Below the pieces are notes generated by a model. It did not search any database and was not told where the DNA came from. It saw nothing but the letters and a program-made list of their open reading frames with translations. From positions 4,154-68,153 of the forward strand of contig CAMWPZ010000001.1 in assembly GCA_947176305.1 (NCBI GenBank): DNA of 64,000 nt. Reading direction: 5' to 3'. The position numbers and the translations under genes are program-made. This DNA is from an uncultured Clostridia bacterium. GTDB lineage: Bacteria > Bacillota > Clostridia > Christensenellales > Borkfalkiaceae. This document shows positions 9,512-50,544 of this stretch, in pieces; within the stretch, counting starts at the first letter, position 1, and each line of letters begins with the position of its first letter.

Positions 9512-10396
9512 ATGAAAAATATCGCAATAGACGAAACGTTTTTACAGCGCATCGAAATGCTGCAAAGCGTTCTTAAAAACAACATAGCCGGCTTATTCGG
9601 CGGTAATCACAAAAGCAGAACGTACGGTTCGTCCTGCGAATTTGTCGATTACAGAAATTACGTGCCCGGCGACGATATTACGAAAATCGACTGGAACGCA
9701 TACGCGCGTTTCGAAACGCTGTATTTAAAGCTGTACCTCGACGAAAGGCAGCTTCACACTAAGATATATATCGACGTAAGCCAGTCGATGGACTTCGGCG
9801 ACGGTAAAAAAGCCGAGATGGCTTTGCAGATTGCCGCAACGCTTGCGTACCTTTCCGTAACCGAGCTTGACAGGGTTTCTATCTATACCATAAAAAACGG
9901 CGAGGTCACGGAAATCATTTCCTCGCTGTCGGGCAGGGAACGCTACTTTGCGGAAATAACCAAGCTCAACGATATAGAGTTTTCGGGCGACTGCCTTATA
10001 AGCGAGGGCATAATGCCCACGCAGGTCGGCTACGGCGACGGGCTTTCCGTAATAATTTCCGACTTCTTAACGGATGCGAATTACGAAAATGCAATCGACT
10101 ATCTTGCCGACAAAAAGCGCGACCTTCTGTGCGTGCAGGTTTTATCCTCGGAAGAGCTTAATCCAAAGGTGCGCGGCAAGAACATTTTTTACGACAGTGA
10201 AAATCCACAGAAAAGCTATCAGAAGAATATCAACAGGGATATCATTAAAGCTTACAGGGAAGCCGTGCAGTACGTGCAGGACAGAATACGCAACTACTGC
10301 AACGCACGCGGCGCGGAATACGTCCTCGTCAAGGACGATAAACCCGTGGACGAGATATTCTTCGAACAGCTCACGGCTATGGGGGTGATGAAATGA
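9512..10396 (+). CDS. DUF58 domain protein (MoxR partner)
   Basis: YRNYVPGDDITKIDWNAYARFETLYLKLY matches the conserved DUF58 R-x-Y-x-x-GD...IDW block. Located directly downstream of MoxR. Confidence 0.75.
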   Translation: MKNIAIDETFLQRIEMLQSVLKNNIAGLFGGNHKSRTYGSSCEFVDYRNYVPGDDITKIDWNAYARFETLYLKLYLDERQLHTKIYIDVSQSMDFGDGKKAEMALQIAATLAYLSVTELDRVSIYTIKNGEVTEIISSLSGRERYFAEITKLNDIEFSGDCLISEGIMPTQVGYGDGLSVIISDFLTDANYENAIDYLADKKRDLLCVQVLSSEELNPKVRGKNIFYDSENPQKSYQKNINRDIIKAYREAVQYVQDRIRNYCNARGAEYVLVKDDKPVDEIFFEQLTAMGVMK

Positions 10397-12273
10397 GTTT
10401 CTATTATCCCTTAGGACTTCTGGGGCTTTTAGGTATCCCCATTGTAATCTTAATCTATATAATCAAATCCAAGTACACCGAGCAGACGATTGCCTCCACC
10501 TATCTTTGGGAGCTTAGCGAAAAGTTTTTGAAAAAGCGCAAGCCCGTTTCAAAGCTTACGGGTATCCTCGCGCTTATCCTCGAAATACTTGCTATATTCG
10601 CGGCTTCTTTGTTAATTGCGCACCCCGTGTTCACCGTTAAAAATTCGGCAAACGATATTTACTTTATCCTTGACGGTTCGGCAAGTATGAATATGCAGAG
10701 CGGCGGCAAAACCCGTTTCGAAAGGGCGCAGGACGAAATTATCGACATAATCGACGATTCCCTCGGCGGAAGCACCTACACACTTTTCTTCGTGAGCGGC
10801 GGCGTAAGCGTTGCCTTCGAGGGCGTTTCCGACAAGGAACAGGCAAAGACCAACGTCAAGGCTTTAAACGCAAGCTGGACTGCGGACGACTGCGCGTCCG
10901 CGATAACCTACGCGCAGACTTATTTCGAATACAATCGTTCGGGGGTGTTCTACCTTCTGACGGATAAACAATATGAAACCGAAAACATCACGCCCGTAAA
11001 CGTTTCCAAGGGCGAAAACAATTACGCAATTTACGAGTACGGTTATAAGTATACGGACGCGGGCCTCTGCGGTACGGGCAAGGTAATTGCCTATAATCAG
11101 GACACAACCCTCACCGTGGAAATGCTCGCGCAGAACGGCGGCGAGGAAGTAAAGGTTGCCCAGACCTCTGTCGAGGTTAAAAAGGGCGAGCCTGCCGACT
11201 TCGAAGTTCAGGCGGGCGACGTCGAGTACACCTCTTTAAGACTTCGCATATCCAACGGCGACGCGCTCGGCGAGGATAATACCGTCGTACTGTACGACGA
11301 GGAAAAGTCGCAGGACAGAAAGGTTTTAATAGTCAACAATTTGCAGGACGTTTCCTATTTAAGAAACGCTATGCTCATTTCAGGTAAAGCTGAAGTCGAA
11401 GTCGTAAGCTTTAAAGCTTATACCGAAGGCGCGTATACGGGCTACGATTTATACGCGTTCAACGGCTGTACTCCCGCTACCCTTCCGACCAACGCGGCTA
11501 TATGGCTTATCAACGCGGTTGACGGTACGGGCAAAGGCTCGGGCATAACGTTCAGAGATATGCAGATACCGAGGGACGAAAGCGGCCCCAACAGTTACTA
11601 TACACCCCGTTATACCAAAGGCTCGTCTACGCAGGAAAAGCGGCTTATGAAAGGCATAATCGGCGTTGACGTCGCGGTCAGGGAATACGCAAGATACGGC
11701 GTTCCCCGCAGCTTCGTTTCGGTAATGAAGGTCGGCGGCGATTCGCTCATATCCGCAGGTCTTAACGAGAACAACGACAGAGAGGTAGTTTTTGCCTTCG
11801 AAATCGGCAAGTCCAACCTCGGCATGCTCGTTGACTTCAATATTTTAATAAGCAATTTAATGAACTACTCTATCCCCTCCGTCATCGACCAGACTATATA
11901 TTCGTGCGGCGACGTGATGGAAGTAAACGTAGTTCCCGGCTGTCAGAGCATAGTTGTTACTACCCCCTCTGGCAGAAGTACAACACTCGACACTCTCGGC
12001 AATGCGGTGTGCGAAGTCAACCTCACCGAAACGGGCACTTACACCCTTTCGGTCAAGGATAACCGCGGCGAAACGAAGTACTACGCGTACGCGTGCGTTC
12101 CCGAAGAAGAAAGCCGTTCGGAAGGCGGCGGCATATTCAAATTGACAGGCGAAAAGGAAAACGTCTACTCGGACGGCTTCTACGACAGCCTGCTCGCCTT
12201 CTTCATAATAATTTCATTACTGCTGCTTGCAGACTGGGGGGTATATTGCTATGAACAATATCAGCTTCGTTAA
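10393..12273 (+). CDS. BatA-like membrane protein with vWA domain
   Basis: The N-terminus MSFYYPLGLLGLLGIPIVILIYIIK is an aerotolerance-regulator (BatA_N)-type double TM. MIDAS motif ILDGSASMN. C-terminal TM. 4-nt overlap with the DUF58 gene. Confidence 0.7.
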   Translation: MSFYYPLGLLGLLGIPIVILIYIIKSKYTEQTIASTYLWELSEKFLKKRKPVSKLTGILALILEILAIFAASLLIAHPVFTVKNSANDIYFILDGSASMNMQSGGKTRFERAQDEIIDIIDDSLGGSTYTLFFVSGGVSVAFEGVSDKEQAKTNVKALNASWTADDCASAITYAQTYFEYNRSGVFYLLTDKQYETENITPVNVSKGENNYAIYEYGYKYTDAGLCGTGKVIAYNQDTTLTVEMLAQNGGEEVKVAQTSVEVKKGEPADFEVQAGDVEYTSLRLRISNGDALGEDNTVVLYDEEKSQDRKVLIVNNLQDVSYLRNAMLISGKAEVEVVSFKAYTEGAYTGYDLYAFNGCTPATLPTNAAIWLINAVDGTGKGSGITFRDMQIPRDESGPNSYYTPRYTKGSSTQEKRLMKGIIGVDVAVREYARYGVPRSFVSVMKVGGDSLISAGLNENNDREVVFAFEIGKSNLGMLVDFNILISNLMNYSIPSVIDQTIYSCGDVMEVNVVPGCQSIVVTTPSGRSTTLDTLGNAVCEVNLTETGTYTLSVKDNRGETKYYAYACVPEEESRSEGGGIFKLTGEKENVYSDGFYDSLLAFFIIISLLLLADWGVYCYEQYQLR

Positions 12274-22105: not shown

Positions 22106-22552
22106 TTACTTCCTTTTTTCAAACTTTTCCTTCGCGTAGGCATGAGCTTCGGAAATAAGAGACTTTAACCTTTCAAACGTTTCGTCGGACGGATTAAGAC
22201 AGCACAGCCAGCTCATCCAGCCGTACACGGGGTGCGGCATTATTTTGTCCGTTGCGGTAAAGTCAAAATCCATATCCACGATTCCGCCTTTTGGCGGACG
22301 CGCGGGGATATGCCCGAACAAATTTAAAAACGTTTGCTTGCGCACGCCGAGGTTGACGCGGTATATTCCCTCCCTGTCAAGGTTTGACGAGCTGTCGTTT
22401 TCACCGTCCTTTTCCTTTACGGTAAGAATATAAACCCCGCGTTTCAGCTTGTTTTCGGGATTGTAGAAAATTCCTCTCTCGCCCCAACTGTTCACGAGCA
22501 CAACGCCATCTAAATTTTCAAGGCAGTATTTTATAATTTCATCTGCAGTCAT
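22106..22552 (-). CDS. Hypothetical protein (possibly DUF6194-like)
   Basis: 148 aa with no catalytic motif. The GIYRVNLGVRKQTF segment recalls DUF6194. The assignment is weak. Confidence 0.3.
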   Translation of the reverse strand: MTADEIIKYCLENLDGVVLVNSWGERGIFYNPENKLKRGVYILTVKEKDGENDSSSNLDREGIYRVNLGVRKQTFLNLFGHIPARPPKGGIVDMDFDFTATDKIMPHPVYGWMSWLCCLNPSDETFERLKSLISEAHAYAKEKFEKRK

Positions 22553-22571: not shown

Positions 22572-25500
22572 TTACGCCGCGGATGCGTTGTTATTAATCT
22601 GCTCGATAACGGCTCTTATCCCTGCCCATACGGACATATCGCGGAAAACTTCGACGATGCTTCCGCGGTCGGTAAAAGGCGATTCGCGCAAGACTGATAA
22701 ATCTTTCATTACCCCGTTATGCACGACGTACTCGACAATCTGGTTTACGAAATAAATCTGCCTGCTGTCGAGGCTTGTATCGTTCAGATATTTTGCGAAC
22801 GCTTCCTTTGCCGCCGCCATGTCAAGCCCGACGATTTCCCTTACGAACTCACCGAGAGGCTTCTCTCCGAACTCCGCCTCGTATTCCGGCTTCGTTCCCA
22901 CTTCGCCCCACAAAATCTTTTCAAGCTCTTTCACGTCGTCCGCGGTAAGCGGCTTGTTGGTTTTCAGTTTAGCTATCGCGGCGTTATCCTCGTGCTGATG
23001 AATGTAATATTCCGCCTTGGCTCTGTAATTCTTCAGATCCTCGCTGTCAAGCTCGGCTTCCCGCCATTCGGAGGATAATATGTCGTCCGTAAAGTTAGTG
23101 GTGTAAATTATTTCGGTGTGCGGAATATACTTTATCAATTCGCGGATACGCTCGCGTATATGCTCGAACTCGTTTATCCCCGCATTTTCGAGATAATCGC
23201 TTTGAAGAATCTGATTGATAAATTCCGACTGTGCCATTATCTCGGGAATATTGGCAACGCCCGCAACCGCTCTTACTTTTTTAATTAAATCCTTACGCGC
23301 CCGAGAATACGTCTTCCCCGCAAGATATGCAAGCTCTATTCCGTACATAAGCGCGTCAAATCTCACGGCGCTCGTTTCGTCGCTGTCGGGCAATATCAAG
23401 GGCGATATTTCCTCGGAAATTATCAGCGTATCTTCATAGGTTAGCGCCGAATAATTTTCAACCGCGGAATACTTTTCAACGTAACGCAAGTGCTGTTTGA
23501 CCGCAAAATTCTCGCGGTTCAACGCGCTCACCTTGCCGGCCATTTCGTCAACAAGGCTTTTGCGGAATTTGATTAAATCGTCCGTTTGATAGGCAATATC
23601 CTGCAGCTTAAAAACAATCTGCGCCTTTAAGCTGAATATCGCGCCCTGCAAAGCAAGCGCGTTCGCCGTGGCTCTGCCCTTGTTCATACGGAAGAACTCG
23701 AAGTTCCCGCAGAAATCGAAAATATAAAACTTGTTCTTATCTTTGCCGTCTAAAAGGCCGGGGCAAAGCCTTGTTCCGCGCCCTATCATCTGCCAGAATT
23801 TCGCCTTGCTCATTACTTTTTTGAAGAATACGAGGTTAAGTATCTCGGGGATATCTATGCCCGTATCCAGCATATCTACGGAAATTGCTATCTGCGGCAA
23901 TTTGTTCGCGCGCGAAAATTCATCTATCGCGCTTTGCGCATAGTTTATTTTATTATCTATTACCTTCGCGTACCCGACCAGATGCGGATATTCCTTCCCG
24001 AACACTTCCAAAATTTTTTCTGCGTGGCGGTGGTTTTTCGCAAAGATTATAGTCTTGCCTATCTTCGCGCCGTAGTCGGTTTTTATGCCGTCAGCCATAA
24101 GAATACGCAGAACTTGCTTTATGGTGTCCTCGTTGAATATCCACTCGTTAAGCGCGTTAGAGCTAATGCTTTCAGGCGTTTCGCCGTTTTCGTCGGCAAA
24201 GGTTCTTTCGTAAATTTCCTTTTCATCCTCGGGCAGTTCGTCGTATACTATGCCCTGCTCAATGAACTTCAGCTTGGTTTCTATGGAAAGGAAATCAACG
24301 AGATATCCGTCGTTTACCGCTTGGGCAAGCTCATAACCGTAGGTCGGCACGCCCTTTTCAAGCTCGAAAATTTCGTAAGTGTTTTTATCTATCTCGTCCT
24401 TCGGGGTTGCCGTCAGTCCGACGAGCGGCGCGTCAAAATAAGTGAATATATCGCGGTACTTATTGTAAATCGAACGGTGCGCCTCGTCGCAGATTACCAA
24501 ATCGAAATGCCCGCAGGTGAACAGCTTACCCTCGTTGTCCTTCGCCTCGTCGATGCAGTTCATCATAGTCTGGTACGTCGAGAACACGCAGTGCGCCGAA
24601 TAGTTATCTTTTTCTTCACAGAGGTTGGTTACCGACAAATCGGGCAGCAGGTTTACGAAGCTGCGCTTTGCCTGCGTAACGAGCGCGTTCCTGTCCGCAA
24701 GGAACAGGATATTCTTTACCCAACCGCGTTTTAAAAGCACGTCGCACAGCCCGATTACCGTTCGCGTTTTGCCCGAACCGGTAGCCATAACTAAAAGCGC
24801 CTTTCTGCGGTTTTTCTCGCCGAAAGCCGCACACACAGCTTTGATTGCGCCTTCCTGATAATATCTTCCCGCTATGCTTTTATCCACGTACACGTTTTTC
24901 AGACTTGTCCGCATGGTGCGCAGGTTGAACAGCTTTTCCAAATCGCGCTTGGAATATATCGCCGCGACTTTGCGTTCGGGATAATAATTGTCCTCCCATA
25001 TCCGCGTTTCGAAACCGTTGGTAAGGAATATTACGGGACGGCGCCCGAATTTGCGCTCTAATAAATCAGCGTACAGCTTAGCCTGTTGTCTGCCGATTGC
25101 AACGTCCTTGCAGGTCTTTTTTGCTTCTATCACGGCTAGCGGCTTTCCGTCGTCGCCGAACAAAACGTAATCCGCATATCCCACGCCCGTAGCGTTGGGC
25201 ATACCCGAAAGCTCGTATTCGTTGAGCCAGTTCCTGCCTTCCGTCCAGCCCGAATCCTGCAGCATTATGTCTATGTACAGCTTGCGCGTTTGATATTCGG
25301 TCGGTTCCGAAGGCGGCGCATAAGTTTTCTTTTGCTCTTCGCGGCGCGCCGTAAGCTGAGCCTTTAACCTTTGGTTTTCGGCGATAAGCTTTTCAAAATC
25401 TATATCGGAAGCCGCGTCAACGGGCTGCTCGGTTTTGTCGTTCAGAAGTTCGGGATTATATTTCCTTTCTTCGTATTCGTCCGCATAGAAGTATGCTACT

Positions 25501-25862
25501 AAGTCGAGGAACACGAACAGGTTTTCAAGGCAAAGCTTTACCTGCTCGGGTTTGACCTTTTTACCGCCGTGCGCCGCACTGTTGCCGACTTTGCGGATAT
25601 AATCGAGCCGCTTTATTATATCGGCGCCTACGATTTTGCGGAATTCTTCCGTGCTTGTAAGCACGGCGAAGGTGTCGTCGTAAGCGGGCTTTTGCAGTTC
25701 CGCGTCTACGGAATACATCCACTTTACGGCAAACTCCGCCGCGCGGCGGCAGTTTATCGCACTCGCCTCCGCGTCGATATTAAATATTTTTTCGGCTGAA
25801 ATCGCAACATCCGCAAACGCCGAAAATTTTTCTTCATTTTTCAAAAAATCAAAGTTTGTCAT
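22572..25862 (-). CDS. hsdR: Type I restriction enzyme R subunit
   Basis: 1096 aa. PD-(D/E)xK nuclease block YADYVLFGDDGKPLAVIEAKK. Helicase motifs LVMATGSGKTRT, LVICDEAHRS (DEAH) and QMIGRGTR. EcoEI-type C-terminal helical tail. Last gene of the fic-hsdM-hsdS-RT-hsdR string. Confidence 0.9.
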   Translation of the reverse strand: MTNFDFLKNEEKFSAFADVAISAEKIFNIDAEASAINCRRAAEFAVKWMYSVDAELQKPAYDDTFAVLTSTEEFRKIVGADIIKRLDYIRKVGNSAAHGGKKVKPEQVKLCLENLFVFLDLVAYFYADEYEERKYNPELLNDKTEQPVDAASDIDFEKLIAENQRLKAQLTARREEQKKTYAPPSEPTEYQTRKLYIDIMLQDSGWTEGRNWLNEYELSGMPNATGVGYADYVLFGDDGKPLAVIEAKKTCKDVAIGRQQAKLYADLLERKFGRRPVIFLTNGFETRIWEDNYYPERKVAAIYSKRDLEKLFNLRTMRTSLKNVYVDKSIAGRYYQEGAIKAVCAAFGEKNRRKALLVMATGSGKTRTVIGLCDVLLKRGWVKNILFLADRNALVTQAKRSFVNLLPDLSVTNLCEEKDNYSAHCVFSTYQTMMNCIDEAKDNEGKLFTCGHFDLVICDEAHRSIYNKYRDIFTYFDAPLVGLTATPKDEIDKNTYEIFELEKGVPTYGYELAQAVNDGYLVDFLSIETKLKFIEQGIVYDELPEDEKEIYERTFADENGETPESISSNALNEWIFNEDTIKQVLRILMADGIKTDYGAKIGKTIIFAKNHRHAEKILEVFGKEYPHLVGYAKVIDNKINYAQSAIDEFSRANKLPQIAISVDMLDTGIDIPEILNLVFFKKVMSKAKFWQMIGRGTRLCPGLLDGKDKNKFYIFDFCGNFEFFRMNKGRATANALALQGAIFSLKAQIVFKLQDIAYQTDDLIKFRKSLVDEMAGKVSALNRENFAVKQHLRYVEKYSAVENYSALTYEDTLIISEEISPLILPDSDETSAVRFDALMYGIELAYLAGKTYSRARKDLIKKVRAVAGVANIPEIMAQSEFINQILQSDYLENAGINEFEHIRERIRELIKYIPHTEIIYTTNFTDDILSSEWREAELDSEDLKNYRAKAEYYIHQHEDNAAIAKLKTNKPLTADDVKELEKILWGEVGTKPEYEAEFGEKPLGEFVREIVGLDMAAAKEAFAKYLNDTSLDSRQIYFVNQIVEYVVHNGVMKDLSVLRESPFTDRGSIVEVFRDMSVWAGIRAVIEQINNNASAA

Positions 25863-25871
25863 ATTTTACTC

Positions 25872-27371
25872 TTATATACTTGTAAACTTAACTTTGTGTC
25901 TTTTCAATTCTTTCCAATCGCCCTTCAAATCACTTTCTGGTAAACATTCATAAATAAACAACCAGTTTCTATCAAAATCTTCAGTTGAATATTTTATTGA
26001 ACGAGCATATGATTTTATTTCTTTTGTTGCTTTTACATCACCAATTTTTGAAAAATATTTAAATGCAAGCAAATTGAAAATGCAGTCCTTAGAATTAGTT
26101 GCATTAGAAGCCATGAAGCCATCTAAATTGAAATTATACTTTATAGCGAAATAAATAGCATAACTTACACTCTCATAATTTTTTCTTTTTAAACCATTTG
26201 TAAACAACAAATTAGAAATTCTTTCTATATCTTTCACATCCGTTTTATAAGGTTTAAAAACATATTCGTCCAAATAAGGAATTAAATAAGGATAAATATA
26301 AGCATATTGCGAAATAGTTTGAAACGCATATTTCTTTGCGCTTTTGCTTAATGTTCGCCCTCTCAATGATTTTATCGCGTATGTGAGAATCGCAGCGTTA
26401 TTGTCATTGGCTTTCATCAGTTCAATAGCACTATCGAGAAAAGCCCTTACCGCATAGAAATCTATATATTTGTCTTTTTTTAATACAATTGATGTGTTTA
26501 ATTGGCGTTTCCACTTTTCAACTATTGCGGTTGGCAATTCCATTATACTTAATTTTTTATAATTTAATTGCAAATCGAATTCTTGTAATGCATCTGACAA
26601 GTCAGATATGAAATCTTGCGCTTTTTCATTACTTTCGACATAACAAGAATAGTCATCAATGTATCTAATAAATCGATATCCTTTATCAAATAAAGTCTTA
26701 TCAACTACTACTAAAATAATTTCCGATAACAAGTTACTCGCATGTGGTCCAATTAACAAACCATGCGTCTCTCCGCCTTTTATTTTTTGTACTGATTCAT
26801 CAATATCATTGTACCAATTACCGCGCCTATTCCGTTTTGCAATTTCTTTCCCAACTAAAGCCCAAGTTAAAGAATGAGAGTAAATACTTGAGAAACAATT
26901 TGAAATGTCAGCCTGCACGATGTAACGATTGCCAAATAACAAATCGGGTTCTGGCTCTCCATCTAGCTCCCAATTGTTATAACTCATTGAGAACAATCTC
27001 TTAGTTCCATGCTTTTTTCTAATGTGTATTCGGCTTATTTTATAATCTTGATTAAGAGTATAATTTCTAAAATGATCCTTAATGTTTTCCCAATTATTTT
27101 TTAAACATAAACATAATTTATAATAAGCCATAGGATTAGGAATTCCTAATTCACGCGGAATATTTATGTTGCGCATATTTTTATAATTAATATACCCTGA
27201 CCCTTTATTATCTAAATTTGGAAAACTAGGATTGTTTTTTATACAATAATCATAAAAATATTTTCCAGTTAAGATTGGTATCAATTTATCAGAAAATAAA
27301 CCAAAAGCTAAAAATCCCTCAAACAACTGGTCTTCTGTAATATGTTCGGTCAATTCAATGTAACTTTTCAT
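25872..27371 (-). CDS. Reverse transcriptase, UG/Abi (defence-associated) type, RT plus helical C-terminal extension
   Basis: 499 aa with RT palm motifs QADISNCFSSIYSHS, GLLIGPHASNLLSEI, RFIRYIDDYSCYV (Y-x-D-D) and LQLNYKKLSI. A helical tail of about 200 aa follows. No maturase, endonuclease or Cas1 domain. It starts 5 nt after the hsdS stop and ends 9 nt before the hsdR start. Confidence 0.8.
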   Translation of the reverse strand: MKSYIELTEHITEDQLFEGFLAFGLFSDKLIPILTGKYFYDYCIKNNPSFPNLDNKGSGYINYKNMRNINIPRELGIPNPMAYYKLCLCLKNNWENIKDHFRNYTLNQDYKISRIHIRKKHGTKRLFSMSYNNWELDGEPEPDLLFGNRYIVQADISNCFSSIYSHSLTWALVGKEIAKRNRRGNWYNDIDESVQKIKGGETHGLLIGPHASNLLSEIILVVVDKTLFDKGYRFIRYIDDYSCYVESNEKAQDFISDLSDALQEFDLQLNYKKLSIMELPTAIVEKWKRQLNTSIVLKKDKYIDFYAVRAFLDSAIELMKANDNNAAILTYAIKSLRGRTLSKSAKKYAFQTISQYAYIYPYLIPYLDEYVFKPYKTDVKDIERISNLLFTNGLKRKNYESVSYAIYFAIKYNFNLDGFMASNATNSKDCIFNLLAFKYFSKIGDVKATKEIKSYARSIKYSTEDFDRNWLFIYECLPESDLKGDWKELKRHKVKFTSI

Positions 27372-27376
27372 TCTTT

Positions 27377-28504
27377 CTATCCAAAGTATTTTTGCATTAA
27401 TGCTTTTTTTAATGTTTGTAATTTTTCAAGACTTTGCTCGATTCTAATTCTTGTTTTTTGTATCTGCTCAACAAAAGTAGCAAACTTATCTTGTTCGCGA
27501 AGCGGAGGCTCTGATATTTCCATTTTTTTTATAACAGCCTGAGAAATATTGGGTTGCGCTCCACCAGCGCATTGAGAAATCATCCATTCTTTCTTGCTCA
27601 AAATGGCATAAAACAAATACAATGGATTAAAACGCTTGTTAGGCAAAATACCGCACACAGCTTGATTGGAAGTTGTGCTAATTTTAAGTAATCCCACTTG
27701 ACCAGCCGTTGCTCCATACATTGCAACGACTACAGTGTTTTCCGGCATCCATTTTGCAGAGGAGTTTTCAAGTCCTTCTTCAGAAATTCTCTTTTTTATA
27801 TTAAAAATCATACCTTGAGCAACTTCCCCACTGGTCAGCCACGGAATATTACCGTTTTCATAATATTCTGCGTGAGATTTATCAGGCGTACCCCCTGAAG
27901 TTGTCGAAAAAATATCACCAATTTTTATTTTAGTAGTCTTTTGATTTGCAAACATCTTGTTAAATTTAGACTTAACAAGCAAGTCGAGTTTTTCAAGTTG
28001 CTGTTTTCGTTTTTCTATTAAATCGCTAAGCCTATCTAATTTCTTTACAACTTGCGATTGAATTTGTAACGTAGGCAAATAAATATATTTTTGCGTTAAT
28101 GTAGCTTTATTTAAAGTTAATCCCTTTACCGCTTTATTACTGCCCTCTGTCCAATCAATCCCATTAAACAAATAATACAAATAATCTTTATTAAACTGAT
28201 TTTTGCCCTTGTCAATGAATGCCATGATCGCTTCATTTGTATATAACTCACTAGCAGTTATAGCCACCTTTCCAATAGATAACTTAAAGCTCATTAGCAC
28301 TGTGTTGGCAGGAACTTTTTTTATACCACTCTCTTGTACCGCTTTATCGCTAATACATTCTTTAGTGTTAAAAATATATTTATCACAAGCGGATAAGTCT
28401 GAAATTGAAACCCATTTATTTTCGCCTCCCCAATAATCAGAATTGTTACGACTTGGGGTTTTCCCCATTTGCAAATCAAAAACATCCCCTAACCTTACTT
28501 TCAC
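27377..28504 (-). CDS. hsdS: Type I R-M specificity subunit
   Basis: 375 aa with two target-recognition halves, each opening with a GD(V/I)F...G(K/G)TP motif (VRLGDVFDLQMGKTPSR; IKIGDIFSTTSGGTPDK). Coiled spacers (LDRLSDLIEKRKQQLEKLD; IEQSLEKLQTLKKALMQ). ATGA overlap with hsdM. Confidence 0.85.
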   Translation of the reverse strand: MKVRLGDVFDLQMGKTPSRNNSDYWGGENKWVSISDLSACDKYIFNTKECISDKAVQESGIKKVPANTVLMSFKLSIGKVAITASELYTNEAIMAFIDKGKNQFNKDYLYYLFNGIDWTEGSNKAVKGLTLNKATLTQKYIYLPTLQIQSQVVKKLDRLSDLIEKRKQQLEKLDLLVKSKFNKMFANQKTTKIKIGDIFSTTSGGTPDKSHAEYYENGNIPWLTSGEVAQGMIFNIKKRISEEGLENSSAKWMPENTVVVAMYGATAGQVGLLKISTTSNQAVCGILPNKRFNPLYLFYAILSKKEWMISQCAGGAQPNISQAVIKKMEISEPPLREQDKFATFVEQIQKTRIRIEQSLEKLQTLKKALMQKYFG

Positions 28505-30006
28505 AACAAGCCCTCCAATTCGGCGAGACCTAAGGTTATTTCCTTTTCAAGCTCTTGCAGGTCAGCCATAAGCTCTTGCGTGGAAGGATATTTTTCCGCA
28601 ACGTATTCCGTCTTTTTATATTTGTTGATAGACAAATCGTAATCGTTGTCAACAATCTCCTGCTTGTCAACGAAAAAGCTCTGTTCGGTGCGCGCGCGCC
28701 CGTTCTCGGCTTCCAGATTATGAAAGCGCGCAATAATGTCGGGTATATCGTTTTCGGCTACGGACGTACGCTTATCGTCCAAAGACATGCCGTCCGCCTT
28801 CATATCGTAAAACCAAACCTTGTCCGTTCCGCCGTGCCCCGTTTTCGTGAAAACCATTACCGCGGTTGAAACCCCCGCATATGGCTTGAATACTCCCGAA
28901 GGCATTGAAATAATCGCAACAAGGCGGTGGTTTTCTATAATCTCTTTGCGTATAGCTTTATGCGCCGTGGACGAGCCGAAAAGCACGCCGTCGGGCACTA
29001 TGCAGGCGCAACGTCCGCCTGTGCGCAGCATACGCAAAAATAACGTTAAAAACAAAAGCTCGGTCTTTTTCGTCTTGCATACCCTTAACAGGTCGGTCGC
29101 AACTATATCGTAATCGAGGCTACCCTTAAAAGGCGGGTTGGCAAGAATAAGCGAATATTTATCTTTGTCCGTATTCTGGTCGGACAAGCTGTCGCGGTAC
29201 TCTATGTAAGGGTTGCTTATTCCGTGCGTCATCATATTCATCGCGCCGATACGGAGCATAGTTCTGTCCATATCATAGCCCGAAAACATCTTTTCCATAA
29301 GGTGATATAATTTTTCTTTATCGTAAAAAATCTGCTCCTTGTGGTGCTGTTTAAGGTATTCGGCGGCGTTTACCAAAAAGCCCGAAGTGCCGCAGGCGGG
29401 GTCGCAGATTACGTCGTCGGGATTGGGCTGCATCATTTCAACAATCATTTTAATTATGTGGCGCGGCGTGCGGAACTGACCGTTCAGTCCCGATTGGGAA
29501 ATCTTCGAAAGCAAGTACTCGTAAACGTCGCCCTTCGTGTCGTTCGCGTCGTTGTCCTGCATTTTTTCCATAAGCGCGTAAATATTGTCCAGCGCATCGA
29601 TTATTTTAGACAATAACAGCGCCGTGGGTATTTTAAAAATTGCGTCGTCCATATACTTCGAGTAAGCGCTGTTCTTGTCGGAATGAAGCCCCTTGATAAA
29701 CGGGAATACCCATTCCTGAATTATGGAATATACTATGTCAGCAGATAAATCGTGGAAGGAAGACCACTTTAACCGATTACCGTCTATCTTCCTTTCACCG
29801 ACGGTTACTTCGCCCGAAAATATGCTTTCATAGGGCAGTCCGAGCATTGCGCTTTCCTTGGCGCGCAAGTTGTCCGAATAATCCAAGTCGTGAATAAACA
29901 TTAAGTAAGTTATTTGCTCGATAACGTCAAGAGGATTTACAAGTCCGCCCGCCGCAAAAATATCCCAAAGGCTGTCGATTTTGTTTTTTAATTCGCCCGT
30001 AATCAT
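28501..30006 (-). CDS. hsdM: Type I R-M N6-adenine DNA methyltransferase subunit
   Basis: AdoMet motif I ICDPACGTSGFL and motif IV LILANPPFKG. The start is taken at ATG 30006 (MITGELKNKIDSLWD), giving a TAATG junction with the fic stop. The track start at 30027 is an alternative. Confidence 0.9.
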   Translation of the reverse strand: MITGELKNKIDSLWDIFAAGGLVNPLDVIEQITYLMFIHDLDYSDNLRAKESAMLGLPYESIFSGEVTVGERKIDGNRLKWSSFHDLSADIVYSIIQEWVFPFIKGLHSDKNSAYSKYMDDAIFKIPTALLLSKIIDALDNIYALMEKMQDNDANDTKGDVYEYLLSKISQSGLNGQFRTPRHIIKMIVEMMQPNPDDVICDPACGTSGFLVNAAEYLKQHHKEQIFYDKEKLYHLMEKMFSGYDMDRTMLRIGAMNMMTHGISNPYIEYRDSLSDQNTDKDKYSLILANPPFKGSLDYDIVATDLLRVCKTKKTELLFLTLFLRMLRTGGRCACIVPDGVLFGSSTAHKAIRKEIIENHRLVAIISMPSGVFKPYAGVSTAVMVFTKTGHGGTDKVWFYDMKADGMSLDDKRTSVAENDIPDIIARFHNLEAENGRARTEQSFFVDKQEIVDNDYDLSINKYKKTEYVAEKYPSTQELMADLQELEKEITLGLAELEGLL

Positions 30007-31034
30007 TATTCTTTCTCCCTGTTCCAAACGTATTGCGTATAACGGCCGCCGCCGAGTTTAATTATATCGCCGTTTTGCAACAGCTCCGCCAAAGCCCTCT
30101 GAACGGTAATTTCACTTACGTTCGGGCATTGATTTAAAATTTCCGTTTTGGTAATTTTCCCTGACGTGTTTTTTATAATTGCCGCAACCCTGTCCGGCTT
30201 TGAAACGCCTTTTGTTAAAAGCTCAGTCCTTTCGAAGAACTCTTTATAGGCTTTTAATACAATGCCGAGAAAGTAACGTATGAAAGGCAAGTAGTCGTTT
30301 TCATTCTCGTGCCAATCGCTACAGCTTTGCCGTATTGCTTGGCGATAGGTTTCTTGCGATTGTTCGATAAGTTTTTCAATGCTTATATATTTACCGACGA
30401 TATATCCCGCCTGATAAAGTAAAAGTAATGTCAGAAGCCTGCTCATTCGCCCGTTGCCGTTATTTAACGGCTGAACACACAGAAAATCCAGTATCGCCAT
30501 AGGGATTATTATAAGCGGGTCAACTTCGCCGTCTTTTAAAATTTCTTCAAAAGCCGAACATAACCCGTCCACGGCTTGCGGCACTGCTTGCACCTCAACT
30601 GTTACGTATGGCGCGGCGCTTTTGATATTAAAGGCTCTGAACTTGCCCGCCGCCGCGTCGCCGCTGTATTTGTATAGGTTCTGATGAAGCTGTAAAATAA
30701 TGTTGGACTTAAACGGCACGTAGGCGTAGCTTTCGTTTATTGTCGAAAGCACGTCGCGATAGCCTGCTATTTCCTGTTCGTTTCTGTTCTGAGGACGGGT
30801 TTTATCGTTGACGATTTTTTTTAACCGCTCGTCGGATGCGGATACCCCTGCGATAATATTTGAAGCTTCCGTACTTTGCAGCTTGGTGCTCTCCAAAAGC
30901 TGCGTCAAAGCTTCCGCCTTATAATCTACGAAAAAAGCTTGCCTGACTTTGTATTCGTGTATCTTTGTCAATAGGGCGACTATATCCGGCGTCAGCGCCT
31001 TTTGCCATGCCTTGGAGTAATCGAATATATGCAT
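30006..31034 (-). CDS. Fic-family protein with non-canonical active-site motif and C-terminal wHTH
   Basis: 342 aa. The Fic core reads QPLNNGNGRMSR where the canonical motif is H-P-F-x-(D/E)-G-N-G-R-x-x-R. The DNA at 30470-30500 confirms CAG (Gln) at the His position. The C-terminus ITVQRALAELLQNGDIIKLG is wHTH-like. Confidence 0.7.
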   Translation of the reverse strand: MHIFDYSKAWQKALTPDIVALLTKIHEYKVRQAFFVDYKAEALTQLLESTKLQSTEASNIIAGVSASDERLKKIVNDKTRPQNRNEQEIAGYRDVLSTINESYAYVPFKSNIILQLHQNLYKYSGDAAAGKFRAFNIKSAAPYVTVEVQAVPQAVDGLCSAFEEILKDGEVDPLIIIPMAILDFLCVQPLNNGNGRMSRLLTLLLLYQAGYIVGKYISIEKLIEQSQETYRQAIRQSCSDWHENENDYLPFIRYFLGIVLKAYKEFFERTELLTKGVSKPDRVAAIIKNTSGKITKTEILNQCPNVSEITVQRALAELLQNGDIIKLGGGRYTQYVWNREKE

Positions 31035-31402
31035 TTACAATTTTCCTTTTACTTATTTCGATTATACCCCCGACGGCTAACTATGTCAAGTCAATTTTAT
31101 CATTTTTTACAATTTGATTAAATTGATTTGGCTGTTGCACATAGTTAATATCTGGATTAATAAAAAAGACAGCGCGGGGAGCGTTGCCTTTTATGGTGCT
31201 TGTGATAGGACTTTAATCGATACGGCTGTTACACAGAGGGGGTTTTAAGGCATATGCGTCAAAAATCGACCTTCACAAAAAACATTAAAAATAGGGCATT
31301 TTCAGCCAAAAACCTCCTGAAAACGCCCCAAAATAAAACTTTTCCGTTTGTTACAAAAACCCTAAAATTAGCAACTTCCCAAAACTTCCCAATTATTTTC
31401 AC

Positions 31403-33330: not shown

Positions 33331-36300
33331 CTAATTGACTAGCTGGCTTAAAAATACCAATGCCTTATTACGGTCAAGGGTTTCATGAACCTTTTGATTC
33401 TCATAACTGCGTAGACATTTATAACACGAAGGATCACAGTCGCATTCTGACAGAATTTTTATTGCTCTATTAATAACAGCTTTTAAAACGTCGCCCGATT
33501 CGGTTACAAGTCTACGAGAATGCCCAGCCCCGCCGGGAACATCATCATAAATGATTATCTGATGAGAATATTTTCCACCCTTTAATTTGTATGTTAAACA
33601 AGCTTTAATGTCACGTTTTTCGATACTTAATACATCAGAAAAAGCATTCAAAATAGCATACATAACGGAAAGCATAGTCGCGTAATCCGACGTGTCTGTT
33701 TCAAATTCAATTTTTGCAACATCGGTCTTAAATTCATGATGTAAGCTGTACTTATTTAACTTGGTGTTTGCGCAAAATCCTTTCCCGAACGGATTGGCAT
33801 GTTTCGGTCCGTCTTTAATGGTTTCAGCTTTGCGTTTATAATCGATATATTTAATTAATTTATCCGTTTCGTCTGCGGCAATTGTATATCCACACTTTGA
33901 ACATACGTAAAAATCTTCTGTAGATTTCACTACCAGCGAATCGTTTGTTGTAGATTGTACATTTACCTTGATATCGCCGAAGTCATACGAATATGTGCTT
34001 ATCGTATCAGCATTTTTATCACCGATATAAACAGCTTCTGTCCTATACTTTCGCTCCTGCGCAGTTAAAGGCACTGATTTAACATCTTGTTCGGCAATAA
34101 ACCCAGATCTAGGCTCAATACTTTTTTTAAAATCTCTAGAACGCAAAATTTCGCCACAAACCGAACAAGGATGACCATCAATGCTAATTGGCATATTGCT
34201 GTAATTGGTGTGCTTACATTTTGGACATTGTGCAATATATGACATATCAAAATCCGTCATTTCGCTTTTATTTACAATAGGTTTTCTTATGTAACGACTT
34301 GTATACAAGTTACCATCTGCAACAACTTCTGCCGATGGAGCGTACTCGGCAATAGCTACAGACAAATCCCTATTCAAATTCAGAGATTTGAATTCTTTAG
34401 ACGAAATATTTTGCGCCAGTTCCACTGAATCAACGGGGAACCCGTATTTAGGTAAAATATTTCCACGAACCAAGAAATCAATCAGTTCATTGTTTTGATA
34501 TCGTTTTAATTTGTTCTCAATACTGACAGCCGCATTTGCCTCACCAGCTTTAAGTGCTTTTTTGCGTTCCTTTTCCAAATAGTCTACATTCTTTTCGTAA
34601 TCTTCAATTAGTGCGGTAAATCTTCCGCTTTTGCCACAAAAATCTTCTAACCAGCCAAAAGAATCCAATTCTATATTTTGCAAATCCCACAAATCTTTCG
34701 GTATCGATTTTTTAAGTAACGTTTTTAAATCTAATGGTTTTGACTTCACCCACTCTAAAAAGTCTTTATACCCTCCATCATTGATAAATACCTTAGCGTT
34801 ATTTTCTCCATACATATTCTCATGTAACTTCAAGTATAAACTTATAGCAACAGCATAAATATGACGCTTGATTATTTTTTCGTTTGCCAATTTAAACTGT
34901 GGCGGATATATAATACCGCTTATCATCTCTTCTGGATGCTCAAAAAACGTAAAGTCATGTGAACTTAATCTTGCATAGGTGAGCGCAAAGGCTGCGGCTT
35001 TGATACTTCTTCCCGCCCTGCCGACTCTTTGTGCGTAGTTAGATGCAAGGGGTGGAATGTTGCGTAAAAATACAGTTTCCAAATCACCTACGTCAACGCC
35101 CATTTCAAAAGTAGTTGAACACGAAAGAGCATTTATTTCTTTCCGCACAAACTTTTGCTGATACTCTAACGCTTCTTTTTTGGCAAGTTGTGCAGTATGT
35201 TCCTTAATAAACAGTGGTGAAACTTTATTGCTTTCATATAGCATAGCATAATAATTATCTTTACACTGTTTATCCGAATCTAACCGTGCAAGTTTGCCAC
35301 CGCAACGTGGATGTCTACACTTGTTGCCGATATTGAATTGCGTCACCTTATGACACTTATCACACTTCCACAATGTAGCATTCTTTCCCAAATGAACACG
35401 AAGACTACTTGCACGCATAAAATAGCCCCTGCCGTCTGATGTTTGTAGGGGATAATTATTAGGCATCGCCTTACCGGTTAAATAATCCCAATAATTATCT
35501 AAAAAGGCATATGCCCCTTGGTCGTCAACATGAAGGAAATCTTTAACAACCCCCGTTTTATTTTGACGATAATATTTTTTCTCACCGTTTTTCTTTGTAC
35601 ACTCAGTAGGCAAAAACGGATGTGAATTTTTTAATGAAACGTCTTTTGTCTTTGTTACGACTTGTTGAGTTTGAGTAAAGAATATATACTTTCTGTCCTC
35701 ATCATTAATATCAGTTTCTTTTTCTGGTACGATTGCACCTTCACGCACGATTTCAAGTGCCAAATAATCAAGGAAATCACGGGCGGATTCTTTATCCACA
35801 TGATAATTATCAACTACAATATTTACAATCCTGTCATCGTTTCCCAAATAACTGAATTTCAACTTTCCAAATGAGACAAGCGATGTATCGCGTCTACTAT
35901 TATACAATTCATTTAACACCGCAATCCATGCGTTGCGTCTGTTTTCAACACTACTTGAAATTGCAATATCAGCATTGCTTTCCCTGAATAATCTGAGTGT
36001 AGAATAATAATTATCTAAAAGTCCAACAAGCTCACTAACGATTAACCCGTTCGGACGATTAGCCGCTTCCTGTTTGACAATATTCCAAATTCCTCTGCGT
36101 CGCAAGAACTCGCTATAAGAAACTTCCATATGACAAGCAAATTTGGCGGCACCTTGCCTGCTATCGGAAAATACAAGAAATTGGCTTCCGGTTCTGTCTT
36201 TTCTGCGATTACTTGACGAAGATACGCCGAATAAACCCTTCTTAGCACTACTATTTTCTGCTGCGCCTTCAAAAGATATGGAATGCTCTGGTATCTGCTC

Positions 36301-38124
36301 AAATAACGATGTTGCCAAAACGCCCGTCGCCGCCTCATAACCGAGTTGAAGTCTTCTTAAATTCCCATTACAATTTAAGCATCTTTCTTTTTTTGCGCGC
36401 TCAATAAGAATGGGCGCACAATTCCCGCAGGTACACCATTTATTGTGTGATTGATTTTCTTCAATGATTGCCCCACAGTTTTTACACAGCATAAACTTTT
36501 CTGCCGGTTTACGGTTTGCTTCACTTTGCTCGTCAATATCTTCAAATTCCTCTTCGTCGTTGTCTCCAACAATTTGATAGTATTCTCTTACGTCGCTGAT
36601 TCCGGCGCGAACAAGTTTTTTAGTTCCGTCATCTCGTTTACCGATAATTGTAAGTTCACCACAATCATCACACACCCCGACTTCAAACATTTTTATTTCA
36701 CCGTTATACTTGTCTTTGCGCGTCAATGTAAAACTTTGAGGATAATCCAAAGCAATATATCCGCCATCCAACGCCCGTAGAAAATAGTGATAACGTATAT
36801 CTATTAAAAGTTTTCCACACTTTTTAGCCTTAGCGCATTGTGAAATGAATGCAACGGCATTTTGTCGTGTTAAGTGCAGATTTTCCGCTAAATCATCAAG
36901 AGAAATCAGCCCACCCTGTTCACGCATTGTTGCATAAATATCCGATTCAATAATTAAATCATATAATATTTCTTCATCATCACGGGTACTGTCAAAAGAG
37001 ATATTATATTTAGCTAAAATCTGTTTAACAGATTGTTCTTCCGCGGCAAGGTCTGCAAATAATGTTTCAGGATATGTGTACTTGCCCGAGCAATATTGGT
37101 TTATTCTGTCAGCATACACAATATTTTCTTGTTTAAAATCGCAACCAGTTAATTTTGACGCAAACCCAACAACGCGGTCTTTACTTTCGCTTGACTGGTC
37201 ACCAAGCGTTGCCGACGTAAGAATAAATAGAGGTTTGCTGTCACCCAGTCGCGCTTTTAACCTTCCCATAAGTAAAGCTGTTTCTATTCCTACGGCACCG
37301 CCATAAACATGAGCTTCATCCAATACGACAAATTTGAAATTTGCTTTTGAAAATAAAACGTCGTCACCCGGACGGAACAGCAAATGCTCTAACATCGCAT
37401 AATTCGTAAAGAGTATATGCGGAGGATGTTTCTTCATTTCAAGACGAGATAATATCTCGTTTTTTAATCTTGATTGTAATTCAGGGCACTTTTCATTCGC
37501 GTACATTGCCTCATAAAGTTGAACGGCAGCCTTCTCGGTATACTCTGTTTCGCCGTTATAGACACCAAACGTAATTTGAGGATAAGCCAACAATATCTCG
37601 CGCAAGCCCTTAATTTGATCGTTTGCCAATGCGTTCATTGGATAAATGAAAATGGCTCGCACACCGTCATTTAAAGTTCCTGCTTCTTGTTCACGCAACA
37701 ATTCATTGAGAACCGGAATTAAAAAACAGTGCGTTTTACCGCTACCGGTGCCTGTTGAAACAACAACGTTTTCGCCAGAAACAATTTTACTTATCGCTCT
37801 TTCCTGATGTAAGTATAATGGTCTGTCTACGGGTAATTTGGGATGACAATTTAATTTACATTGACTGCGATTACATTGCGTGGTTTTACTCTGTTCCAAT
37901 TCCCGAAAAAGCGGGGAGAGTATACCGGCATCAATAAGTTGTCCAATTGATTTCCCCGTTTTAAACGTATCCTTAATTTCAACAAAAGGACCGTTAGAAA
38001 CAGTCCTATTTAATTCAATCTCAAGTTGCGACTGAATCAGCGGATTACGAAAATGATATGTTGTTGCAATATAACCCATATACTCTTTTTTAATTTCTTC
38101 TGCCGCTTTTGCCGGATTAAACAT
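33331..38124 (-). CDS. Giant DEAH-box SF2 helicase with C-terminal DUF1998/MZB zinc domain (DruE-like)
   Basis: 1597 aa. Motif I VSTGTGSGKTH, Ia IYPMNALANDQ, II VVLDEAHVYGG, III LTSATLG and VI YAQRVGRAGR. C-terminal IIYDDVPGGAGHSRRL...CDCDPSCYKCLRSYENQ matches DUF1998. Several internal CxxC...CxxC ribbons. Confidence 0.75.
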   Translation of the reverse strand: MFNPAKAAEEIKKEYMGYIATTYHFRNPLIQSQLEIELNRTVSNGPFVEIKDTFKTGKSIGQLIDAGILSPLFRELEQSKTTQCNRSQCKLNCHPKLPVDRPLYLHQERAISKIVSGENVVVSTGTGSGKTHCFLIPVLNELLREQEAGTLNDGVRAIFIYPMNALANDQIKGLREILLAYPQITFGVYNGETEYTEKAAVQLYEAMYANEKCPELQSRLKNEILSRLEMKKHPPHILFTNYAMLEHLLFRPGDDVLFSKANFKFVVLDEAHVYGGAVGIETALLMGRLKARLGDSKPLFILTSATLGDQSSESKDRVVGFASKLTGCDFKQENIVYADRINQYCSGKYTYPETLFADLAAEEQSVKQILAKYNISFDSTRDDEEILYDLIIESDIYATMREQGGLISLDDLAENLHLTRQNAVAFISQCAKAKKCGKLLIDIRYHYFLRALDGGYIALDYPQSFTLTRKDKYNGEIKMFEVGVCDDCGELTIIGKRDDGTKKLVRAGISDVREYYQIVGDNDEEEFEDIDEQSEANRKPAEKFMLCKNCGAIIEENQSHNKWCTCGNCAPILIERAKKERCLNCNGNLRRLQLGYEAATGVLATSLFEQIPEHSISFEGAAENSSAKKGLFGVSSSSNRRKDRTGSQFLVFSDSRQGAAKFACHMEVSYSEFLRRRGIWNIVKQEAANRPNGLIVSELVGLLDNYYSTLRLFRESNADIAISSSVENRRNAWIAVLNELYNSRRDTSLVSFGKLKFSYLGNDDRIVNIVVDNYHVDKESARDFLDYLALEIVREGAIVPEKETDINDEDRKYIFFTQTQQVVTKTKDVSLKNSHPFLPTECTKKNGEKKYYRQNKTGVVKDFLHVDDQGAYAFLDNYWDYLTGKAMPNNYPLQTSDGRGYFMRASSLRVHLGKNATLWKCDKCHKVTQFNIGNKCRHPRCGGKLARLDSDKQCKDNYYAMLYESNKVSPLFIKEHTAQLAKKEALEYQQKFVRKEINALSCSTTFEMGVDVGDLETVFLRNIPPLASNYAQRVGRAGRSIKAAAFALTYARLSSHDFTFFEHPEEMISGIIYPPQFKLANEKIIKRHIYAVAISLYLKLHENMYGENNAKVFINDGGYKDFLEWVKSKPLDLKTLLKKSIPKDLWDLQNIELDSFGWLEDFCGKSGRFTALIEDYEKNVDYLEKERKKALKAGEANAAVSIENKLKRYQNNELIDFLVRGNILPKYGFPVDSVELAQNISSKEFKSLNLNRDLSVAIAEYAPSAEVVADGNLYTSRYIRKPIVNKSEMTDFDMSYIAQCPKCKHTNYSNMPISIDGHPCSVCGEILRSRDFKKSIEPRSGFIAEQDVKSVPLTAQERKYRTEAVYIGDKNADTISTYSYDFGDIKVNVQSTTNDSLVVKSTEDFYVCSKCGYTIAADETDKLIKYIDYKRKAETIKDGPKHANPFGKGFCANTKLNKYSLHHEFKTDVAKIEFETDTSDYATMLSVMYAILNAFSDVLSIEKRDIKACLTYKLKGGKYSHQIIIYDDVPGGAGHSRRLVTESGDVLKAVINRAIKILSECDCDPSCYKCLRSYENQKVHETLDRNKALVFLSQLVN

Positions 38125-50481: not shown

Positions 50482-50510
50482 TTGAACAAATTGAAAAATT
50501 GTAGTATAAT
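50482..50510 (+). promoter_or_regulatory. Candidate sigma-A promoter of the DUF262 gene
   Basis: TTGAAC (50482-50487), 17-nt spacer ending in TG, TATAAT (50505-50510). GGAG at 50531-50534 precedes the ATG at 50545. Confidence 0.5.
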
Positions 50511-50544
50511 AAATCTACTAATTTTCAAATGGAGCAATAAGTTT

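Follow-up and report, generated by a model that had tools for sequence, protein, structure and literature searches.

The window analysed here, a 64,000-nucleotide (nt) stretch of an uncultured Clostridia bacterium of the Borkfalkiaceae (contig CAMWPZ010000001.1 of assembly GCA_947176305.1, positions 4,154 to 68,153), carries a reverse transcriptase (RT) gene lodged between hsdS and hsdR of a type I restriction-modification (R-M) operon. This RT is an intact DRT4 (UG15) enzyme, i.e. a class 1 UG/Abi reverse transcriptase. Our results make it likely that it acts as an autonomous DRT4 abortive-infection module, carried as exchangeable cargo in the hsdS-hsdR interval and probably co-transcribed with the R-M genes. 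A preliminary description of this DNA, made from the sequence alone, had favoured functional coupling of the RT to the restriction complex over mere co-location. Such coupling is not supported; the data speak for co-regulation and co-transfer rather than for a shared mechanism.

Identity of the reverse transcriptase

The listing of open reading frames (ORFs) and its translation delimited the RT as a 499-amino-acid (aa) ORF with an ATG start on the minus strand (25872..27371). Reading of the junctions placed the end of the hsdS stop codon at 27377 and the RT ATG at 27371, leaving a 5-nt gap (AAAGA), and the end of the RT stop codon at 25872 and the hsdR ATG at 25862, leaving a 9-nt gap. Both gaps agree with those first described, and so does the intact YIDD catalytic box, which was confirmed by translation (residues 237-240, 26652..26663). 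Pfam RVT_1 matched residues 147-278 above its gathering cut-off (1.8e-10) and, together with an alignment to UG15 that begins at residue 57, defined the fingers and palm (approximately residues 57-285, 26517..27203), including the catalytic D155. The C-terminal part (residues 286-499, 25875..26516) is an alpha-Rep-like domain, all-helical in the secondary structure of an AlphaFold2 (AF2) model and covered by the UG15 alignment as far as residue 475; with its ~210 residues it matches the helical extension of about 200 aa noticed earlier.

Family assignment relied on PADLOC, NCBIfam, PDB and Foldseek searches and on coding constraint. Placement against DRT and Abi profiles, proposed initially as a check, gave PADLOC Drt4 (PDLC02178) as the best model (674.5 bits, 2.7e-203, residues 1-497 of 499), with Drt6 (284 bits), UG30 (188) and AbiK (126) well below. 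UG15/DRT4 chains were likewise the best matches in a phmmer search of PDB sequences (4e-49), followed by Abi-P2 and AbiK. The AF2 model, built from 28 homologs, reached a pLDDT of 83.3 and a pTM of 0.85; residues 286-491 were all-helical (pLDDT mostly 80-97) and the sole disordered loop comprised residues 129-139. Compared with PDB structures by Foldseek, it first retrieved the DRT4/UG15 entries 9vdv, 9vdo and 9l9s (TM 0.81-0.83 over ~510 columns), then DRT6 (0.77), AbiK (~0.70) and Abi-P2 (~0.6). RTs from group II introns (0.35-0.39), retrons, DRT2 and DRT9 (all three ~0.3) aligned on the core only (TM ~0.3-0.4). The suggestion of a class 1 UG/Abi defence RT was therefore correct, and can be narrowed to DRT4/UG15 on the basis of PADLOC, PDB sequence and Foldseek matches.

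The same searches bear on the idea of a selfish retroelement, of the group II intron or retron-like kind, inserted into the R-M operon without any defence role. The gene is AT-rich with respect to its flanks and was evidently acquired horizontally, and its match to TIGR04416, the model of group II intron RTs, was weak (56 bits, cut-off 300). Yet such an origin is hardly conceivable: fold and profile searches give DRT4 and not intron RTs, and neither intron RNA, nor a maturase X or endonuclease domain, nor an Rfam group II match was found, a search at Rfam gathering thresholds over the whole 64-kb window having returned 0 matches. The spacers of 5 and 9 nt are also too small for ribozyme domains, and the presence of non-RT cargo at the same position elsewhere (see below) makes insertion independent of retromobility. 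An RT of the group II intron or retron type accompanied by a nearby RNA, the counter-scenario of the preliminary description, is ruled out by profiles, fold and the Rfam result.

Catalytic residues D155, D239 and D240 were invariant in 74/74 relatives. Tyr131 ('MSY'; codon verified at 26979..26981) aligned, in the phmmer comparison with PDB UG15, to Tyr125 of E. coli DRT4 ('MNY') and is the predicted protein-priming residue; it lies within the disordered loop and was kept in 72/74 relatives. The YxDD box was more variable, reading NIDD in 60/74 clade members and YIDD in the lineage of the window and locus L010 only, as in E. coli DRT4.

The ratio of non-synonymous to synonymous substitution rates (dN/dS), calculated by our own Nei-Gojobori estimate against the L010 copy, was 0.05, so the RT is under strong purifying selection. 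A low ratio towards a copy that is 92% identical argues against a decaying passenger, i.e. an inactive remnant that by chance is still in frame. The ORF is moreover full length, its catalytic residues and priming Tyr are intact and its predicted fold is confident, which together render decay most improbable, although homologs split in two ORFs do exist in L009, L056, L066, L091 and L094. These split homologs are probably pseudogenes or assembly frameshifts.

As a divergent DRT4 that shares ~28% identity with the characterised enzyme and stems from a gut-type lineage of Clostridia, the RT of the window widens the diversity of the family, the mechanism of which was not solved until 2025.

A variable slot between hsdS and hsdR

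Many homologs were far closer to the HsdR of the window than the one from L010 (P0121 98% identical, P0124 91%, P0123 90%, P0126 88% and P0129 84%). Their operons keep the organization Fic-hsdM-hsdS-[slot]-hsdR, all headed by Fic, with other genes in the slot. This slot is occupied by a 308-aa protein of unknown function in L102, by a 494-aa AAA/TIR protein and a 407-aa unknown in L103, by DUF2806 and a 241-aa unknown in L104, and by DUF2806 in L105. In L101, where hsdR is 96% identical at the nucleotide level and the neighbouring rarA is shared, the ORF upstream of hsdR is not an RT.

Comparison with L101-L105 by blastn defined the limits of the slot. Homology extends over Fic, hsdM and, in hsdS, the conserved centre and the 3' end. 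It breaks off at 27365-27379, at the hsdS stop codon, and resumes at 25862-25866, at the hsdR ATG. Because of these breakpoints, the variable segment (25863..27376, minus strand) coincides exactly with the RT ORF together with the spacers of 5 and 9 nt. On one side it is bordered by the conserved hsdS 3' end (left homology arm, 27377..27494, from blastn against L102-L104), on the other by the conserved start of hsdR (right homology arm, 25813..25866), where homology to all sister operons begins again. The arm sequences next to the slot read ...AATGCAAAAATACTTTGGATAR / ATGACMAACTTTGATTT....

Two sister operons carry duplicated arms. The tandem cargo genes of L103 and L104 are parted (at 5527-5750 and 6073-6251, respectively) by a copy of the hsdR 5' start, followed by a copy of the hsdS 3' end, which correspond to positions 25813-25866 and 27379-27494 of the window. 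The hsdR copies measure 47-57 nt and are 91% identical to the functional one, while those of hsdS measure 78-115 nt (73-88%). Owing to these duplications, each cargo gene behaves as a cassette bracketed by arms. Judged from their sequence, the duplicates look like the leftover expected when operons with different cargo recombine across conserved arms. Direct repeats were also sought around the RT of the window and nothing meaningful was found.

The RT gene further differs from its frame in composition and in age. Its G+C content is 29.7%, against 46% for hsdM, 48% for hsdR and 44% for Fic. RT values below those of the flanks were recorded in 59/59 related loci (L001-L098), embedded or stand-alone (mean 35.4% against 43.5%), third codon positions also being lower. 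Between the window and L010, where the RT gene occupies 10001-11500, the RTs share 92% aa identity with a synonymous divergence (dS, our own Nei-Gojobori estimate) of 0.88, whereas dS was 2.1 for both HsdM (78% identity) and HsdS (32%) and saturated for HsdR (70%) and Fic (50%). Nucleotide identity is uniform over the whole RT ORF (~86%, range 84-88%) and falls sharply to 60-72% at its borders, the hsdM and hsdR flanks being ~70% identical. As far as sequence divergence can tell, this indicates that the two RTs have a younger common ancestor than their frames and that the RT was transferred separately and more recently.

The low dS of the RT relative to flanks above 2 could in principle reflect constraint on an RNA, as would be needed for an RNA-templated defence RT in the manner of retrons, DRT2, DRT3 or DRT9 whose RNA is hidden in the coding sequence of hsdS, the RT or hsdR; other DRT classes do need non-coding RNAs (ncRNAs; PMC13213688). 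Local RNA constraint is argued against by the uniformity of RT identity, since values raised evenly to 84-88% over the ORF are those of a more recent transfer. A hidden template is very unlikely on other grounds as well: the best-matching family is DRT4, for which independence from both template and ncRNA was shown, structures of retron, DRT2 and DRT9 RTs aligned on the RT core only (TM ~0.3), the window contained no Rfam match, the hsdS and hsdR flanks are wholly different among loci with related RTs, and the flanks of stand-alone homologs are unrelated. The earlier remark that gaps of 5 and 9 nt leave no space for an msr/msd or a DRT2/DRT9-type ncRNA thus holds, in line with the 0 Rfam matches.

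Recurrence among relatives

Conservation of the hsdS-RT-hsdR order elsewhere had been proposed as a check, and the order does recur; it is not unique to this genome. The closest relatives display it: a 92%-identical RT homolog (P0001) is found in the same Fic-hsdM-hsdS-RT-hsdR cassette, and an 80%-identical one (P0002) has hsdS and hsdR on either side. Scanning genome contigs yielded nine loci, of which the four with the closest RTs (48-52% identity, Bacillota metagenome-assembled genomes, MAGs) were organized as hsdM-[variable ORF]-hsdS-RT-hsdR, the junctions varying between an overlap of 4 nt and a gap of 12 nt. The HsdR of these four has a T1RH-like C-terminus and is from another family.

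A further 80 metagenome loci were added, and neighbours were labelled with hidden Markov models built from the Hsd proteins in hand. In this similarity-ranked sample, a type I R-M context was observed in 30/49 informative non-redundant loci (61%): 23 displayed hsdS/hsdM upstream and hsdR downstream, five hsdR only and two hsdS/M only. Stand-alone RTs made up the other 19/49. The partner HsdRs represent at least four lineages (identity below 35%), and a neighbour-joining tree of the RTs places the embedded ones in at least six groups, with stand-alone RTs in between. Stand-alone homologs occur at ~50% identity too, surrounded by housekeeping genes or located in other islands. Elsewhere, other Abi-type genes share the slot with the RT: L047 encodes a TIR protein there, L043 and L081 encode AbiJ-like proteins. 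A tblastn search of a plasmid collection only returned distant RTs (at most 32% identity) and is uninformative for this clade; the best match, in a Pseudoalteromonas record, was unannotated, had no Hsd neighbours and was followed by an integrase gene.

Two further features of these loci can be mentioned. In L010/L012 (1-2640), which carry the 92%-identical RT, the cassette adjoins genes for a tyrosine integrase, a relaxase and a NikA-like protein, which suggests that it resides there on an integrative mobilisable element; the flanks in the window differ. In HindI-like operons with an RT, an unannotated ORF of ~278 aa lies between hsdM and hsdS (7982-8818 in L001; also present in L002, L003, L030 and L061). 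Its L001 version had no Pfam match and weakly matched the PADLOC 'oligonucleotide-cyclase' model (2.6e-5).

Organization of the operon

The gene order is Fic-hsdM-hsdS-RT-hsdR, all on the minus strand, with junctions over the five genes ranging from a 4-nt overlap to a 9-nt gap. The operon's first gene encodes a Fic/SoFic-like protein (30006..31034; Pfam Fic 7.8e-10, PADLOC SoFic 1.5e-26). It is followed by hsdM, the type I methyltransferase gene (28501..30006; Pfam N6_Mtase 6.6e-65 and HsdM_N, PADLOC MTase_I 594 bits over the full length), and by hsdS (27377..28504), with two target-recognition domains (Pfam Methylase_S 4.1e-49 in two stretches, PADLOC Specificity_I). The Fic stop codon overlaps the probable hsdM ATG at 30006 (TAATG), ahead of which a GGGAG Shine-Dalgarno sequence is found, and the GTG start of hsdS overlaps the hsdM stop by 4 nt. 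The TTG start of the longest hsdM ORF (30027) is probably wrong, as the ATG at 30006 gives 501 aa and sister HsdMs measure 497-501 aa.

The last gene, hsdR (22572..25862), codes for 1096 aa and was recognised over its full length by PADLOC REase_I (543 bits). Pfam domains comprise an N-terminal DUF4145, the HSDR_N nuclease, a superfamily 2 (SF2) motor (ResIII/SWI2_SNF2 and Helicase_C) and EcoEI_R_C. The protein is of the EcoEI/EcoAI type, a sub-family assignment that is approximate since the NCBIfam EcoAI-type model scored 251 bits against a cut-off of 550. The DUF4145 fused before the nuclease (25400-25862, residues ~1-115) is kept in all close HsdR homologs; HsdR also matches the PADLOC candidate PDC-M16A. 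The type I R-M operon is thus complete, with intact hsdM, hsdS (both target-recognition domains) and hsdR (nuclease and SF2 motor).

A putative promoter, TTGACA-17 nt-TATAAT, lies upstream of Fic (31061..31089, minus strand), with an AAGGA Shine-Dalgarno sequence and the Fic ATG (31034) downstream. It is the sole 12/12 match to the sigma-70 consensus in 12 kb, a match to consensus only; promoter-like matches in this 12-kb region amounted to 37, against 26.6 +/- 4.8 in shuffled sequences. Candidate internal promoters for hsdR within the RT ORF reached at most 9/12 matches, which is uninformative in such an AT-rich stretch, and no convincing internal terminator was found within the five-gene operon. 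Co-transcription of the five genes from one promoter is therefore plausible in view of the tight junctions, the consensus promoter and the terminator result. The preliminary description had gone further in stating that the RT must be co-transcribed with the R-M genes.

Cargo or coupling

The question of coupling has a precedent in the type IC operon EcoprrI, in which the abortive-infection gene prrC lies between hsdS and hsdR and is expressed together with the operon; PrrC is the one case where functional coupling is proven (PMC12707154). By analogy, the RT could be a guardian, coupled physically or functionally to the type I complex and kept latent by HsdMSR until restriction is disabled by a phage anti-restriction protein, either a DNA mimic like Ocr/ArdA or a peptide like Stp, whereupon synthesis of single-stranded DNA (ssDNA) would serve as back-up. 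The RT does occupy the position of prrC in EcoprrI (PMC12707154), type I contexts were found in 30/49 informative relatives with at least four HsdR lineages, the genes appear translationally close-coupled and, in V. cholerae, protection by embedded tgvAB was 10-100-fold better in the context of the complete cluster (PMC11411939). We nonetheless regard a guardian as improbable. In near-identical operons the RT is replaced by unrelated cargo, 19/49 relatives stand alone, some of them amid housekeeping genes, and partner HsdRs less than 35% identical are hard to fit to one specific protein-protein interface. Furthermore, E. coli DRT4 is a single-gene system triggered by a phage DNA-binding protein acting on its ssDNA product, not by R-M status (PMC12783706).

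The RTs themselves point in the same direction. The alignment of 74 relatives contained no column separating embedded from stand-alone RTs, the best one reaching 70% versus 7%, and the RT of the window often lacks the residue of the embedded majority. Embedded and stand-alone RTs were also of the same length and no extra domain was found in either, so that neither residue nor domain tells them apart. It is on this set of observations, i.e. unrelated slot genes beside HsdRs 84-98% identical, stand-alone homologs, absence of distinguishing residues and the single-gene nature of E. coli DRT4, that functional coupling as initially favoured was set aside.

A more general version would be that the Firmicutes DRT4 clade was repeatedly selected into the hsdS-hsdR position since its activity is tied to type I restriction, which we consider unlikely. 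It could take two forms. The first is the guardian described above, set free once HsdMSR is disabled by anti-restriction proteins; in the second, products of HsdR translocation or cleavage and the ssDNA made by the RT would feed each other. If true, restriction motor and untemplated DNA polymerase would together make up a two-tier system.

Some points weigh against autonomous cargo as we propose it. NCBIfam Drt4 (NF041749) scored 407.1 bits, under its equivalog cut-off of 450, which is an annotation threshold and not a biochemical criterion; the alignment runs end to end (21-488 of 489) and the score is four-fold over that of the next family. The mechanism would be transferred from an E. coli homolog only ~28% identical. 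Our locus sample, being ranked by similarity to an embedded query RT, is biased, and the RT tree is a neighbour-joining one with no support values. Finally, the embedding rate of 61%, always beside hsdR and spread over several HsdR lineages, exceeds what a neutral hot-spot model strictly requires; this frequency is compatible with a hot slot combined with a benefit of co-transfer, but gives some, albeit low, probability to a selective or functional link with type I systems.

Proposed mode of action

Wang et al. (2025, PMC12783706) reported on the mechanism of E. coli DRT4. The enzyme forms a single-gene system for which no ncRNA is needed, it assembles as a hexamer (a dimer of trimers) and it makes ssDNA of random sequence with no need for a template. 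Priming occurs at Tyr125, absolutely conserved in 174 DRT4s; Y125F abolished both synthesis and defence, and changing YIDD to YIAA had the same effect (PMC12783706). Cells are defended by abortive infection: ORF55, a DNA-binding protein of T5, protects the ssDNA against host exonuclease at its 3' end, leading to toxic build-up (PMC12783706). Protection by this single gene is documented in two studies (PMC12783706; PMC9226505), and loss of the last 38 aa of the alpha-Rep domain abolished UG15 defence (Mestre et al. 2022, PMC9226505). A 2026 overview agrees on the DRT4 mechanism and states that other DRT classes require ncRNAs (PMC13213688).

Because DRT4 was shown to be single-gene and template-independent, no ncRNA is needed for the RT of the window. 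The preliminary description had listed a template-independent or protein-primed enzyme like AbiK among its alternatives, and this is what was demonstrated experimentally for E. coli DRT4 (PMC12783706), with whose priming Tyr the predicted Tyr131 aligns. By homology, the RT would act autonomously, assemble as a hexamer, prime on its own Tyr131 and polymerise random ssDNA without template or ncRNA. Host exonucleases would normally clear this ssDNA. On infection, a phage DNA-binding protein would stabilise it, and its accumulation would kill or arrest the cell, i.e. abortive infection. Restriction may then constitute the first line and abortive infection the back-up, within one mobile and co-regulated unit, the cargo of which would be exchanged through recombination across two conserved segments, the 3' end of hsdS and the 5' start of hsdR, as breakpoints and scars suggest.

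Comparison with known systems

With E. coli DRT4/UG15 (Gao et al. 2020; PMC9226505; PMC12783706; structures 9vdo, 9vdv and 9l9s), the RT of the window shares an RT palm and a C-terminal helical alpha-Rep domain within ~500 aa, an xIDD box, the priming Tyr and the absence of an ncRNA. They differ in sequence (only ~27-28% identity), in origin (a Clostridia MAG versus proteobacteria), in the clade's predominant box (mostly NIDD instead of the YIDD of E. coli DRT4) and in setting, since E. coli DRT4 is free-standing or cargo of prophage hot-spots whereas the present gene is nested in a type I R-M operon. DRT6 (UG12), AbiK and Abi-P2 share the RT and helical-repeat fold as well as protein-primed, untemplated synthesis, the latter predicted by homology for the RT of the window. 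AbiK and DRT6 are reported to form hexamers and Abi-P2 a trimer, and the priming residue of AbiK and its position are unlike those of DRT4.

PrrC resembles the RT in its location between hsdS and hsdR, but it is an RNase; it binds EcoprrI, and inhibition of EcoprrI is what triggers it. According to the text of Payne et al. (2024, 10.1101/2024.01.29.577857), PrrC occurs almost only in type I systems, while many known systems are embedded occasionally; the clade of the present RT is often stand-alone, and its slot elsewhere contains unrelated genes. The same text reports that defence genes embedded in type I R-M, BREX, DISARM and Hma systems are co-oriented with the host system in 96.7% of cases (10.1101/2024.01.29.577857). 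The interval between hsdS and hsdR is also where TgvAB of V. cholerae VPI-2 and the C. jejuni rlo genes reside (PMC11411939).

The RT displays the features of 'guilt by embedding': it is nested in a multi-gene system, has the same orientation and occupies a slot whose contents vary among relatives. Beyond earlier embedding cases, the slot borders and duplicated arms are resolved here to the nucleotide. DRT4/UG15 is not named as type I R-M cargo in the literature text searched; the figures of Payne et al., which lie outside that text, may include it. The published description of UG15 from H. pylori makes no link to R-M.

The locus adds to two known kinds, divergent DRT4s and embedded defence genes, and no new kind of RT biology arises from it. 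The additions are modest: the frequent type I context of the Firmicutes DRT4 clade and the definition of the slot at the nucleotide level. In the Fic-hsdMS-[slot]-hsdR family, a nucleotide-precise slot sees DRT4, TIR/AAA, DUF2806 and AbiJ-like proteins as well as unknowns swapped and even stacked. Its conserved arms provide a concrete mechanism for the exchange of embedded defences, and its uncharacterised genes a ready list of defence candidates.

Genomic surroundings

The operon belongs to a dense defence island as judged by PADLOC. It is accompanied by a gene for a DruE-like helicase of 1597 aa (33331-38124, DruE 553 bits), followed by an unannotated 906-aa gene, and by a complete pPIWI-RE module (43275-49921) composed of PprPIWI (43275-45788), PprDinG (45730-48810) and PprRE (48803-49921). 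Further along are a HEC-05/GmrSD-like gene (50482-52302, 611 bits) and a VakA/PDC-M51B-like gene (59379-59963). At the 3' end of the operon, hsdR and rarA are separated by a DUF6194 gene (22106-22552), which begins 19 nt past hsdR and overlaps rarA. In L101 this gene is missing and rarA directly follows hsdR; the position is thus a second, small indel site of the operon.

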